The notes beneath the pieces were generated by a model. That model saw only the letters and a list, made by a program, of their open reading frames with translations. It made no database searches and was not told the origin of the DNA. From Escherichia phage vB_EcoP_HC-25922: a stretch of 64,000 nt of DNA. Below, in pieces: positions 3,388 to 63,326 of the stretch. The translations under genes were made by a program, and so were the position numbers. Positions within the stretch are counted from its first letter, which is position 1. Each line of letters begins with the position of its first letter. Location: the sequence record OQ555404.1; one strand, written 5' to 3'.

Positions 3388-3396
3388 TAATGTATA
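3388..3396 (+). promoter_or_regulatory. TAATGTATA promoter-like motif (candidate phage-sigma promoter)
   Basis: exact 9-mer 33 nt upstream of the ATG at 3430; same motif and spacing recur at 20077 and 35772. Confidence 0.45.
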
Positions 3397-20076: not shown

Positions 20077-20085
20077 TAATGTATA
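20077..20085 (+). promoter_or_regulatory. TAATGTATA promoter-like motif
   Basis: exact 9-mer 36 nt upstream of the ATG at 20122. Confidence 0.45.
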
Positions 20086-28397: not shown

Positions 28398-29138
28398 TTA
28401 GAAAGGGCTGTCATCTTCTTCAAAGGTAGACTGCGGCTCTTCGTTAATAGTAGGGATACTTGGAGTAGCATCTTTCTGTTCAGTATCAGAAGCTTTAGTA
28501 ACTTCACGACCAGCCAGAGGGATGTTCTTAGCATCATTAGCTTGGGTCAGAAGATTACGTTGGAATGGGAAGATTGCTTGATAAGCAGCCAAGTTAGCAT
28601 CAGTCTCAGCATACGGTTCGAAGAAGATCAACTCACTACGAGGGGCACCTACAGCATCACGATATTTGGTAGGGATTGGAGTGATACTCTTAATGGAGTT
28701 TTTCTTCTCACCAGCTTTGTTTACATAGGAATTAACCAGAATGTTAACAGGCTGACCTAGCAGCATATCTTTAAACCAACCCAAATCACCTTTCAGTGCT
28801 TGAACACTTGGGTCGATCATTTTGATCAGATTCAGAATACCAGAGTTCTTAGCTCGTGGGTTTACGTCGAAAGTTTTAAACTGGCAAGCAGGACGAGGGT
28901 CCAGAGGTTTGCCTTCATTATCAGTCCCTGTTGCATCCACGCCAATCAGTTCAAAAGCCAAGTCCATACGGAAAGCTGGGTTCTTAGGAGTAACTGCTTT
29001 AGTCTTAGGGTCAATCCAAGGGTCACGATTGTGAACACCTAAACCTACAACACGAACAATACGTGCTTCGTACTCACCATCAGGGATTACATCGTAGTTG
29101 GATTTACGGGATACAGACAGTTCAGGGATCATAGACAT
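28398..29138 (-). CDS. single-stranded DNA-binding protein (T7 gp2.5-like)
   Basis: 246 aa with acidic C-terminal tail ending in Phe (EEDDSPF). Confidence 0.45.
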   Translation of the reverse strand: MSMIPELSVSRKSNYDVIPDGEYEARIVRVVGLGVHNRDPWIDPKTKAVTPKNPAFRMDLAFELIGVDATGTDNEGKPLDPRPACQFKTFDVNPRAKNSGILNLIKMIDPSVQALKGDLGWFKDMLLGQPVNILVNSYVNKAGEKKNSIKSITPIPTKYRDAVGAPRSELIFFEPYAETDANLAAYQAIFPFQRNLLTQANDAKNIPLAGREVTKASDTEQKDATPSIPTINEEPQSTFEEDDSPF

Positions 29139-29556
29139 ATTAATATTTCCTTATATAAATTTAAGATTGTTGCTCTCTTTGAGCGGTTTGTATACTATAT
29201 ACATTACACTTATACAGATAAGGTTCTATTATACTATAACCTTTTTGGTAGTAGATAATAACAAATAGTAATGTATATATATGGTATAGCTAGTAAAGCT
29301 ATTGCAGGCTTGTATATTGGGCAATTCATAGAATCCCTTGCAAGTACCGAAGGGCAGGAGCCACCTGCGAGATAAAAATAGAGAATTAAGGAAATCCTTG
29401 ATTTAGGTTGTAGGGACTCCTAGGGACTTTGATTCTCTATTTAAAAGAATATTAATTACTTACTACCTAAATAATTAACTAACTTACTTAAACCAAACTC
29501 AAGAATAATAGATAAAAAGATTATTCCTAAGAAAGCTAAAAAGTAAAGGATATAAG
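29139..29556. promoter_or_regulatory. 418-bp AT-rich noncoding region with divergent TAATGTATA motifs, palindromes and direct repeats
   Basis: no ORF of 60 aa or more; TAATGTATA on minus at 29198-29206 and on plus at 29269-29277; inverted repeat AAATAGAGAAT/ATTCTCTATTT; direct repeat TAGGGACT x2. Confidence 0.4.
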
Positions 29557-29686
29557 TTACCATTCAAGTAAACCTTTAAAGTTAGTTTGTTCTACTATCC
29601 TCTGATAATGAAGATTAGAATCAGCTTGTTTCTTTAACATCTCATTATATTTATCTCTGATAGAGTCTTTATAAACTACAGGTTCT

Positions 29687-30208
29687 TTAAATAATGAGAT
29701 CTTGTTCTTTTCTTCTTTCATCGAAAACCTTCCTAATCTCTTGCAGAGAAACAGCTTTATAATTAATTTGCTCCATTGATGTACAGAAATATCTCCAATC
29801 ATCAATTACATGATTATGGGTATGAGCATAAATATTAAACTTCCCTCTCATTTCATCAGTGTGAATAGGAATATGAGTTACCCAAAACTCTTTATATTTA
29901 TAATCACCAGAGATTCTACGGAAGACTTTCATCATATCAGGGAGAAGTTCTAACCTGTCATGGTTTCCTAAGACTAGATGCTTCTCTCCTTTTACTTCAG
30001 CGATGATATCAAGGGCATACTTTTCAAACACCCAATCACCGGTAAAGAAAGTTTTATCACGTTTAGTAACATGGTCAAACGCTGCTAAGATAGCGTTGTC
30101 GTGTTCTTCAATACTACTAAACCTCTTCCTAAAGCTACAGATGTTACGATGGCCTAGGTGACCATCACCTGCAAAATAAACTTCAGCCATTCTCGTATGT
30201 GTCCTCAT
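29687..30208 (-). CDS. metallophosphoesterase (calcineurin-like)
   Basis: GDGHLGH, GNHD and HTHNH motifs. Confidence 0.65.
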   Translation of the reverse strand: MRTHTRMAEVYFAGDGHLGHRNICSFRKRFSSIEEHDNAILAAFDHVTKRDKTFFTGDWVFEKYALDIIAEVKGEKHLVLGNHDRLELLPDMMKVFRRISGDYKYKEFWVTHIPIHTDEMRGKFNIYAHTHNHVIDDWRYFCTSMEQINYKAVSLQEIRKVFDERRKEQDLII

Positions 30209-35771: not shown

Positions 35772-35780
35772 TATACATTA
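35772..35780 (-). promoter_or_regulatory. TAATGTATA promoter-like motif (minus strand)
   Basis: plus TATACATTA; 32 nt upstream of the start codon at 35739. Confidence 0.45.
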
Positions 35781-40362: not shown

Positions 40363-40414
40363 ACAATATTCTTATACTGTATATACATTTGAGAGTTATC
40401 ATATCTACTACCAA

Positions 40415-56023: not shown

Positions 56024-56187
56024 AACTTCTCCTGTTTGTCACATTGATTGGTTAGCCAGTTGTAAGACCCTCTGTTATTCTTGCTTAACTCGCAAGATGC
56101 AAAAGAGTACATCCTGACAAACCCCACAGTGGCTAAGCAAATAAAGATTGCTGCCAATAAGAACTTAACTTTCAACTTATTATCCAT
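56020..56187 (-). CDS. small membrane protein (55 aa, below ORF-track cutoff)
   Basis: MDNKLKVKFLLAAIFICLATVGFV...; AAGAAGAGG RBS 5 nt upstream. Confidence 0.3.
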   Translation of the reverse strand: MDNKLKVKFLLAAIFICLATVGFVRMYSFASCELSKNNRGSYNWLTNQCDKQEKL

Positions 56188-56296
56188 ACAACCTCTTCTT
56201 TGAACTTAAAAAAGGACTCTCCTAAGAGAGCCAAGCTTTAAGGCCAATTAAATAGATATCACCCAATATCTGTGGATAACCTGCTCTTAAAATATT

Positions 56297-56433
56297 CTAT
56301 CCGACGGATGTTCGAGGATTATTCCTCTCCCTAGCATCGGCCCCATACGGGAAAGATTAAATTAAGTTTAGGTTAGTTGAGCCAGAATAGCTCACATAGC
56401 CCTCTGATACTCACAAGGGCTATAGATGTTACT
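56297..56433 (-). repeat. conserved noncoding element, copy A
   Basis: shares ordered blocks (ctatc, gatgtt, tctctccctagc, tcacatagccctctgata, gatgttact) and a hairpin with copy B. Confidence 0.5.
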
Positions 56434-58321: not shown

Positions 58322-58661
58322 TTTACCACCTTTAATTATGGACCAAATAAAAACTATCGGGGAGTGCACTAGCTCTGGGCCACGTTGTGAACATCGGCCT
58401 ACCTTTCACAACTAATTAGCTAATACACTCTCCGATAGTTTATAAATAGGGGGAGGGGACGAATCCTCCCATATCCTATTAATTAATATTGCATGTAAGA
58501 CCTAACAATCCGATGCTGTAGTGGATAGCGTAAAACGCTTACCGGCATTAAACCCAGCCCATGAGGGGCTTATGTGATTAAAATGCTCAACATTGAGCGG
58601 TTAGTTGATAGGAGATCTGAAGTCCTATCTCAAAGGACTCTCGTAAGAATCCTTCACGATA

Positions 58662-59471: not shown

Positions 59472-59626
59472 GATCCCTCCTGAAGCGCCTTACGGCGGCT
59501 ATCTCGCCAAGCCATCCATAGGTAGGTTTTAAGTTCTTCTCTTTCTTCTTCGCTGAACAAAGGAGAAGTAAAGATATCATCGAACCACTCATTAAACTCA
59601 GGGGTCATAAACCCTCCTATTTGATT

Positions 59627-59653
59627 TGGTGGACTATCTGGAATCGAACCAGA
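59627..59653 (-). other. tRNA 3'-half-like fragment (T-arm plus acceptor 3' strand)
   Basis: minus-strand TCTGG-TTCGATT-CCAGA T-arm followed by TAGTCCACCA; no complementary 5' acceptor strand found. Confidence 0.3.
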
Positions 59654-59752
59654 AGCTCACTAAGAAAGCAATTCCCACTGTTATAAAAGCACTTGCCTCA
59701 ACAGGGATACACTAACTCTGGTGCCGTACCCATACTAGCCCTTGTTTAAAAT

Positions 59753-59780
59753 TGGTCGGGACGGAAGGATTCGAACCCTC
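59753..59780 (-). other. tRNA 3'-half-like fragment ending in CCA
   Basis: minus-strand GAGGG-TTCGAAT-CCTTC T-arm followed by CGTCCCG-A-CCA; no room for a full tRNA. Confidence 0.3.
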
Positions 59781-59804
59781 CTACGTTGATTTAAAAGCTC
59801 TTAG

Positions 59805-59883
<79 letters not shown>

Positions 59884-59906
59884 ATTAAGAGCTTTCAATA
59901 TTTTGT

Positions 59907-63125: not shown

Positions 63126-63326
63126 ATCTTTATCCTCTTAAAGTAAGATATTATAAGAAATATTATTTAGAATTTATTATTTCTAAACTTAATTCCTATC
63201 AATAATTTTCAGAGGTCTATATACAGTCATTACCTCTGGTCCCAAATCACTTCCACTTTTTACAGAGAAAATCATAAGTGTGTGATTTATAAGGAAATTT
63301 AGTTTGTCAATATTGGCACTTATGAA

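Follow-up and report, generated by a model that had tools for sequence, protein, structure and literature searches.

P40 and a predicted divergent promoter upstream of gene 40

In the 64,000-nt stretch of Escherichia phage vB_EcoP_HC-25922 (OQ555404.1) analysed here, hereafter called the window, the DNA immediately upstream of the gene 40 homologue (positions 29139-29556) carries two divergent promoter-like elements, one serving gene 40 and one pointing away from it, and the latter is followed by a conserved segment that is predicted to encode a structured noncoding RNA. The minus strand carries all the neighbouring genes, and the equivalent spacer of phage phiEco32 separates phi32_40 from phi32_41. 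Over the 2 kb surrounding the spacer in the window, identity is 99% with Escherichia phage vB_EcoP_SU7 and 98% with MLP3, and the 98 records matched by BLAST all belong to phiEco32-like podoviruses of E. coli or Shigella (Gordonclarkvirinae: Kuravirus, Suseptimavirus, Nieuwekanaalvirus).

An earlier note had described this region as the longest stretch of the window free of open reading frames (ORFs), AT-rich, and containing divergent promoter-like motifs, palindromes, repeats and a hairpin. The listed motifs, palindromes, repeats and hairpin are all present, each where the note had placed it, and its two general descriptions stand in part. When ORFs of at least 60 amino acids are considered, 29139-29556 (418 nt) is indeed the longest gap, but a shorter ORF of 35 amino acids, corresponding to gp41, occupies 29456-29563 on the minus strand; therefore, the truly noncoding part is 29139-29455. 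Similarly, the region is AT-rich overall (29.4% GC, compared to 42.2% for the window) but not uniformly so, the flanks having 21-26% GC and the segment 29284-29447 having 40%.

Phage phiEco32 is a model for the takeover of E. coli RNA polymerase by a phage sigma factor, gp36, together with its partner gp79. The motif found twice in the spacer, TAATGTATA, is the experimentally derived consensus of the gp36-dependent promoters of phiEco32, from which transcription starts 6-8 nt downstream (PMC8948821, PMC4331800) and at which gp36 is the phage sigma factor carried by the E. coli RNA polymerase (PMC8948821, PMC4331800, PMC4281155). Six such promoters have been published, namely P6, P13, P26, P40, P58 and P68 (PMC8948821 and its Table S3, PMC4331800, PMC4281155). 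The two copies in the spacer, at 29198-29206 on the minus strand and at 29269-29277 on the plus strand, point apart, and both lie within a perfect 12-nt inverted repeat, GTAATGTATATA. Across the window the motif occurs five times in exact form, compared to 0.61 copies expected, and none of 100 shuffles reached five. The remaining exact sites (3388-3396 and 20077-20085 on the plus strand, 35772-35780 on the minus strand) and a copy with one mismatch (40382-40390, minus strand) all precede genes, and these sites match the positions expected for P13 or P26, P58 and P68. Sigma-70 promoter-like sites, by comparison with shuffles, are no more frequent than expected in the region.

The minus-strand copy is the already known middle promoter P40, driving gene 40. 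Specifically, it is an exact match to the P40 element, which is given with the TAATGTATA sequence for six phages in Table S3 of PMC8948821, and it is kept in 20/20 phages of an alignment comprising the window phage and 19 relatives. The plus-strand copy, also an exact match, kept in 20/20 aligned phages and in all but one of the related sequences inspected, is the only TAATGTATA site of the window without a gene, and we refer to it as the orphan promoter. The ORF check bore out the earlier statement that no plus-strand ORF lies downstream of it, and its neighbours are all on the minus strand, so that no middle or late gene is co-oriented with it. The orphan promoter is not among the six gp36 promoters in the published lists, a comparison that covers the lists of PMC8948821 with its Table S3, PMC4331800 and PMC4281155.

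Upstream of the orphan -10-type element, a -35-type element, TGGTAGTAGATA, maps to 29246-29257 on the plus strand. This 12-mer has only two exact copies in the window, the other one being located at 40402-40413 on the minus strand, 11 nt upstream of the P68-like promoter, and the spacing between the 12-mer and the -10-type element is 11 nt at both promoters. By setting AATGTA at -14 to -9, following PMC12276001, TGGTAGTAGATA spans positions -38 to -27 and places a G at -37 and an A at -34. In the cryo-electron microscopy structure of the P68 open complex with gp36 and gp79, -37G and the T paired with -34A are the bases contacted by the C-terminal domain of gp36, and mutation of these P68 contact bases abolishes transcription (PMC12276001). 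The orphan promoter therefore has both recognition elements of the verified promoter P68, namely TAATGTATA and TGGTAGTAGATA with -37G and -34A.

The same arrangement recurs in related phages. Among IMG/VR genomes it is found at the P68 locus in 5/5 and at the orphan locus in 4/5 (phiEco32, NJ01, ECBP2 and KBNP1711), with spacing equal to that of the window. In the 20-phage alignment TGGTAGTAGATA is conserved at the orphan locus, with two mismatches in myPSH1131, and the 11 nt between TGGTAGTAGATA and TAATGTATA, as well as the DNA further upstream, are variable while both promoter elements are conserved. The orphan promoter thus resembles the class formed by P6, P13, P26, P40, P58 and P68 in its -10-type element, (T/A)AATGTATA, and P68 in particular in its 12-mer at -38 to -27. 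It differs from the published gp36 promoters in that those precede a protein gene and point with it, whereas the orphan points against its neighbours. As far as the sequence can tell, the plus-strand copy is best read as a predicted second gp36-dependent promoter of P68 type, without a gene.

When the 25 nt upstream of the six sites are compared, several classes of gp36 promoter can be told apart by their -38 to -27 regions. TAAGACCTA is common to the two late-strand promoters and resembles ATAGAACCT of P40; TGGAATCT is found at the P58-like promoter, and TGGTAGTAGATA at the P68-like and orphan promoters. Both -37G and -34A are present only in the P58-like, P68-like and orphan promoters. Such class differences might underlie middle-versus-late timing. 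In myPSH1131-type phages, the sequence of the orphan promoter is TATAATGTATA, and a perfect sigma-70 -10 hexamer is included in it.

Fold, variation and distribution of the predicted RNA

Downstream of the orphan promoter, the plus strand is predicted to fold into four helices, P1 to P4. The predicted +1 falls at 29284, and P1 would form a hairpin at the very 5' end (29284-29305, core stem 29286-29291/29297-29302). It is followed by P2 (29308-29345), an exchangeable central domain present in the window as version A, in which the palindrome CTTGCAAG is located (29337-29344). The 3' domain (29346-29447) consists of a linker, P3, a second linker and P4. P3 is the hairpin GCAGG-AGCCA-CCUGC (29354-29368), for which an alternative long-range pairing of UUGCA(GG) with (CC)UGCRA is possible. 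P4 (29376-29442) is a long hairpin with a lower stem of 15-16 bp and two inner helices. Its arms hold the 11-nt inverted repeat AAATAGAGAAT / ATTCTCTATTT (29376-29386 and 29432-29442), which extends to 14 nt with 93% complementarity, and it encloses both copies of the tandem repeat TAGGGACT (29411-29418 and 29421-29428, 10 nt apart) and the CCTAGG palindrome (29419-29424).

All six frames of the core are closed, no conserved ORF was found on either strand, and relatives differ by indels of 1-2 nt within the core. A coding sequence of 65 amino acids annotated here in phage 4E8 is not conserved. Searches for known RNAs were equally negative: Rfam gave no match inside 29139-29556 at a permissive threshold (E up to 10), and ARAGORN found no tRNA or tmRNA in the window.

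In about a hundred coliphages, few parts of the local genome are as conserved as the predicted RNA. By BLAST, the 102 nt of the 3' domain are at least 99% identical in 56/98 phage records and at least 90% identical in 98/98, compared to gene 40, which reaches at least 99% identity in only 5 of the 98 and shows 60-90% in 82, mostly 80-90%. Sliding-window conservation is 0.92-0.98 over the core and 0.49 immediately after 29447, at the base of P4, and we take this sharp drop as the likely 3' boundary of a functional unit. Divergent phages were located via homologues of gene 40, and in a divergent clade whose gene 40 is 72-74% identical the element is present, with covariance-model scores of 99-118 bits and a nearly unchanged 3' domain.

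As the earlier note had proposed, we compared conservation and covariation across related phages; the region is conserved, and both P1 and P2 show compensatory changes. P1 differs in sequence with its pairing kept (AUAGCU/AGCUAU, AUAGA/UCUAU, AGAGUUA/UAACUCU, AUAGUU/AACUAU), and in many phages one of its G-C pairs is replaced by G·U. In the divergent clade it reads ACAUC/GAUGU, still starting exactly 6 nt past the promoter element. P2 can be swapped for an unrelated sequence of another length: version B is found in MN05, myPSH1131 and ECBP2, and versions C and D in L047, L053, L054 and L052. Among 25 distinct sequences, eight pairs, four in P1 and four in P2, are changed on both sides (27 cells). 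None of 500 shuffles reached eight pairs, and controls slid to shifted partners gave at most two. P1 is also supported on an independent MAFFT alignment. In the plus-strand consensus fold, 20 of 27 variable columns are unpaired, six keep the pairing and one breaks a pair.

The central domain was seen in at least four unrelated versions of differing length (also in L016, L020, L023, L047, L052 and L053). P1 types, central modules and P4 variants are combined mosaically among phages, therefore recombination recurs inside the element.

The 3' domain varies far less. The P3 stem is invariant in the 25 distinct sequences, the sole change being C to A in the loop. Variation in P4 is almost wholly unpaired or pairing-preserving: the TH34-type variant of the TAGGGACT repeat has lost two loop bases and one bulged G, with the repeat spacing going from 10 to 9 bp; XT32 has an A-U to G·U change; and in the divergent clade an insertion turns UCC into UCCC, the added C being able to pair with the bulged G. 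A pair-breaking U-to-C change in P4 appears in a single metagenomic sequence (mgL032).

The structure also favours the plus strand. The consensus fold reaches -40.6 kcal/mol on the plus strand and -29.4 kcal/mol on the minus strand. Only 2/585 cells are non-canonical in the plus-strand structure, compared to 72/585 when it is mirrored onto the minus strand, where G·U pairs become A·C mismatches. For P4 alone, the values are -22.1 kcal/mol (z-score -3.2) on the plus strand and -14.2 kcal/mol (z-score -2.2) on the minus strand.

The distribution of the element is narrow. In the window, the covariance model finds a single copy only, and it finds no element at the corresponding loci of 7-11, Privateer, LAh_8, Vp_R1, L049 and L050. 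L049 and L050 have a gene 40 that is 61-65% identical, preceded by 145-nt spacers, and in the other four the spacers upstream of the gene 40 homologue measure about 55 to 243 nt. That these more distant relatives lack the element marks it as a lineage-specific addition and not a core feature of the wider family. No match to the RNA was found by BLAST in all complete E. coli genomes, and only chance-level matches in plasmids. Scans of IMG/VR and metagenomes with a 20-23-nt core pattern recovered close relatives only, plus two unrelated chance matches. Literature searches returned no relevant paper for the core sequences, and nothing on the element appears in the genome papers of SU10, SU7, Kuravirus and Privateer. 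Small RNAs encoded by phages and phage promoters without a gene both have precedents; P40 is known already, and neither the orphan promoter nor its RNA was found described in the literature searched, or as an Rfam family.

Proposed mode of action and rival explanations

The analysis establishes that the two promoter elements exist and are conserved, that the segment has no coding capacity, that P1 and P2 show covariation, that the plus strand is preferred, and where the boundaries of conservation lie. On balance, we think it probable that the orphan gp36 promoter makes a structured noncoding RNA of about 160 nt, one of the possibilities raised in the earlier note. We favour this explanation because it covers most of the features, namely both gp36 promoter elements, the hairpin at +1, covariation in two helices, G·U pairs that exist on the plus strand only, the sharp boundary of conservation at the 3' end and the lack of an ORF. 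A regulatory hub, which the note also offered, is too vaguely framed to be weighed against it.

The following sequence of events would account for the region. Leftward, P40 would transcribe the SSB-like gene 40. Rightward, once gp36 has been made, E. coli RNA polymerase with gp36 would start at about 29284; P68, with the same elements as the orphan promoter, is a middle promoter. The rightward transcript would be noncoding and antiparallel to the surrounding genes, and would fold into the P1 hairpin, the exchangeable P2 and the near-invariant P3 and P4, ending near 29442-29447. Its 3' end may be formed at P4 by weak termination at the short U-run past the stem or, alternatively, by Rho-dependent termination in the G-poor tract that follows, after which the transcript would be trimmed as far as the hairpin. 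This would leave a stable RNA of about 160 nt, whose invariant 3' domain would most likely serve as a platform to which a protein or a second RNA binds. Being complementary to minus-strand read-through into gene 40, the RNA would also oppose such read-through, although the invariance of loops and linkers suggests a specific protein or RNA partner rather than mere antisense action.

Several observations weigh against this interpretation and have to be set beside it. The canonical terminator scan of 28500-30200 found no terminator on either strand, hence none behind the RNA on the plus strand. P4 itself is unlike an intrinsic terminator, which has a short GC-rich stem, a small loop and a U-run directly behind them; it is AU-rich and has a large structured loop, with UAUUU (plus strand) or UUUUUAU (minus strand) after it. 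The plus strand past P4 reads UAUUUAAAA, and UUUUAAAA in the divergent clade. The same clade has TAATGAATA as its orphan -10-type element, with a spacer of 10 nt instead of 11, and an uncompensated A-to-U change in the lower P4 stem. Taken as a whole, the RNA folds better than shuffles to a modest degree only (z-score -2.2). The alignment used for covariation was fitted to the structure model, hence biased towards the structure, and the pairing of P3 and P4 rests on energy and on the location of few changes, since these helices practically never vary and covariation is uninformative for them. The extreme conservation could come in part from frequent recombination across the spot and not from constraint on each base. 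No target emerged among phage mRNAs: eight exact 10-mer complements were found, compared to 11.8 expected, and duplex energies with 120 translation start regions fall inside the shuffle range. Finally, the orphan promoter may already have been tested and silent, or noted, in Pavlova et al. 2012 or Savalia et al. 2008. A CsrA-sponge function was considered and dropped: the 3' domain has four GGA motifs compared to roughly 1.6 expected, by hand count and estimate, which is not significant.

In its antisense aspect, the putative RNA resembles lambda OOP and other phage and plasmid antisense RNAs, as it is short, noncoding, made from its own promoter opposite the major operon, bounded by stem-loops and complementary to read-through. 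OOP, however, overlaps the 3' end of cII and has a canonical terminator, which the putative RNA lacks; the conserved part of the latter finishes 9-14 nt before the gp41 stop codon (29456-29458) is reached. No overlap with the coding 3' end of a convergent gene is found, and several phages without gp41 keep the RNA. Moreover, the putative RNA is larger, and its invariant multi-helix 3' domain is unneeded for simple antisense action.

An iteron-type replication origin, as suggested in the earlier note, is not supported: such origins carry several direct repeats, as a rule at least three, of about 17-22 bp, to which the product of a nearby initiator gene binds, and here there are only the two 8-nt TAGGGACT copies, inside the predicted RNA hairpin, and no other significant repeat family. 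TAGGGACT is not enriched either (two copies in the window, none of them outside the element, compared to 1.9 expected). A transcription-primed origin is a different proposal, in which the orphan promoter makes a primer or R-loop RNA, divergent transcription unwinds AT-rich DNA and replication starts at the 3' end of the RNA, on the model of T7 phiOL/phiOR and the T7 primary origin, of T4 oriF/oriG and of ColE1 RNA II. Phage promoters without a gene are well documented at the origins of T7 and T4, and the locus shares with T7 phiOL/phiOR and T4 oriF/oriG a phage-specific, geneless promoter, adjoining AT-rich DNA (21-26% GC on both sides) and replication genes including one for an SSB-like protein; the promoter lies immediately upstream of this gene, in the replication gene region. 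A structured primer RNA would in addition account for the conserved folding, as in ColE1 RNA II, which is likewise untranslated and highly structured, with a conserved fold that begins with stem-loops, and gene 40 has a weak NCBIfam match to the NGO0469 family (24.9 bits). However, this match is far under the 75-bit cut-off, and the predicted protein is an OB-fold and no known initiator. The T7 and T4 origins need no conserved structured RNA of about 160 nt, and ColE1 RNA II, at about 550 nt, is partnered by the antisense RNA I, whereas the window RNA has no sequence or Rfam similarity to it. The AT-rich tract, which starts 165 nt downstream of the orphan promoter, is poorly conserved and deleted in five of the 19 relatives (TH34, Bas87, XT32, Paul and ECBP2). 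The element is absent at the same position in L049, L050, 7-11, Privateer, LAh_8 and Vp_R1 despite shared gene order, and the turning point of GC skew is not at the element but at about 24-25 kb, together with the switch in gene orientation. Taken together, we regard a transcription-primed origin as unlikely.

We consider it improbable that the element acts on the minus strand or as DNA, that is, as a terminator or insulator ending the upstream operon after gp41 and making gene 40 depend on P40, with the TAGGGACT pair and the inverted repeat as protein-binding sites and the plus-strand promoter incidental or serving transcriptional interference only. On the minus strand the hairpin begins about 10 nt past the gp41 stop codon and is then followed by a run of five U, and in phages without gp41 it again lies just past the preceding gene; direct repeats one helical turn apart are typical of protein-binding sites, for which invariant sequence is also expected. 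Yet the terminator scan gives no match at the element, and the clear terminators of this phage are short GC-rich UUCG hairpins, quite different from the AU-rich stem and 43-nt loop of P4. The minus-strand fold is much weaker, with its A·C mismatches, the C-to-U changes of P1 would break a minus-strand hairpin, and the change of the TAGGGACT spacing in the TH34 type is at odds with a DNA-binding arrangement. This proposal would moreover leave the conservation of the plus-strand -35 and -10 elements and the hairpin fixed at +1 unexplained. Very improbable, in our opinion, is the remaining option that nothing beyond P40 is functional, the plus-strand motif being a chance occurrence or a relic and the conserved block hitch-hiking via recombination between phages. 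Modules of the region have been exchanged between phages, giving it a mosaic structure, the wider family can do without the element, and one metagenomic contig (L030) has a mutated -10 element, TAATATATA, in place of the orphan TAATGTATA. Nevertheless, an exact 9-mer and an exact 12-mer at the correct spacing are very unlikely by chance, the 12-mer being present only twice in 64 kb, the promoter elements are conserved amid variable flanks, P1 and P2 carry compensatory changes, and conservation across 98 genomes is higher in the core than in the gene beside it.

Returning to the noncoding RNA made from the orphan promoter, we give roughly even chances to a more specific proposal, namely that it represents a new structured-RNA family confined to the Gordonclarkvirinae of E. 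coli and Shigella and produced from a seventh, geneless gp36 promoter, with the 3' domain as a specific platform, which could act on a host or phage protein as its decoy or scaffold, or could be a replication primer RNA next to the SSB gene.

Neighbouring features and significance

The gene 40 homologue served by P40 (28398-29138, minus strand) encodes 246 amino acids and is annotated as 'hypothetical' in nearly all records. Its structure, predicted by AlphaFold2 (AF2) with an alignment after a single-sequence model (pLDDT 36) had been discarded, is that of an OB-fold single-stranded DNA (ssDNA) binder and not of a known initiator fold. Members of the family share an invariant C-terminal ...DDDxPF, which resembles the E. 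coli SSB tip. A Pfam search of gene 40 gave no match, and the NCBIfam family of its weak match is named 'phage replication initiation protein, NGO0469 family'. The gene 40 product is probably a phage SSB, judging from the structural model, and it could compete for the host SSB-binding partners. As gene 40 is SSB-like, the element sits at the head of a replication gene.

The 5' untranslated leader of gene 40, with its ribosome-binding site, would extend over 29139-29190 on the minus strand according to the 6-8-nt start rule (PMC8948821). Mean pairwise identity over 29150-29194 is about 0.93, which is high for an untranslated leader, and this segment contains CCGCUCAAAGAGAGCAACAAUCUU; the leader may be a translational control site for the SSB-like gene. 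Three near-identical minus-strand terminators with a GC-rich stem and a UUCG loop (GCCACC-UUCG-GGUGGC type) were observed at 28374-28357, 31702-31683 and 35418-35394. As the one at 28374-28357 directly follows gene 40, P40, gene 40 and this terminator appear to be a single-gene unit.

Between the divergent promoters lies an AT-rich variable spacer (29207-29245), which with an identity of 0.70-0.75 is the least conserved part of the region and into which the -35 region of P40, about 29218-29229, falls; GC content over 29207-29268 is 26%. In myPSH1131-type phages (L020), an insertion of about 145 nt is found between the two promoters (about 560-700 of the locus). Three Logan contigs with gene 40 homologues (L051, L055 and L056) end 30-200 nt upstream of that gene, and in L051 and L055 the upstream sequence is unrelated and without the element. 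The spacer upstream of gene 40 seems to be a frequent assembly or recombination break-point.

On the other side of the RNA, the AT-rich tract (29448-29556) has 21% GC and is G-poor on the plus strand, with 11 C and 3 G in its first 78 nt. It overlaps gp41 (29456-29563, minus strand), a very hydrophobic 35-amino-acid peptide, MVTYILYFLAFLGIIFLSIILEFGLSKLVNYLGSK, homologous to the annotated phi32_41 and belonging to PHROG 24970. Since gp41 is deleted in the same five phages that lack the tract, it is dispensable. Other long gaps without ORFs of at least 60 amino acids occur at 56024-56428, 59593-59906, 58416-58661 and 63126-63326, in the early-gene part of the genome.

For annotation and engineering, a gap that looks empty would be unsuited as a neutral insertion site. 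Given its strong conservation in about a hundred coliphages that are therapeutic candidates and the lack of a known RNA family, the element is a cheap target in the search for a regulatory RNA or for the replication origin of this group. The P68-type -35 element at the orphan promoter would help define how gp36 reads DNA upstream of the -10 element. In conclusion, the transcription map of phiEco32 has six gp36 promoters, all of them for protein genes, and a seventh, geneless one, if true, would add a noncoding product to it.

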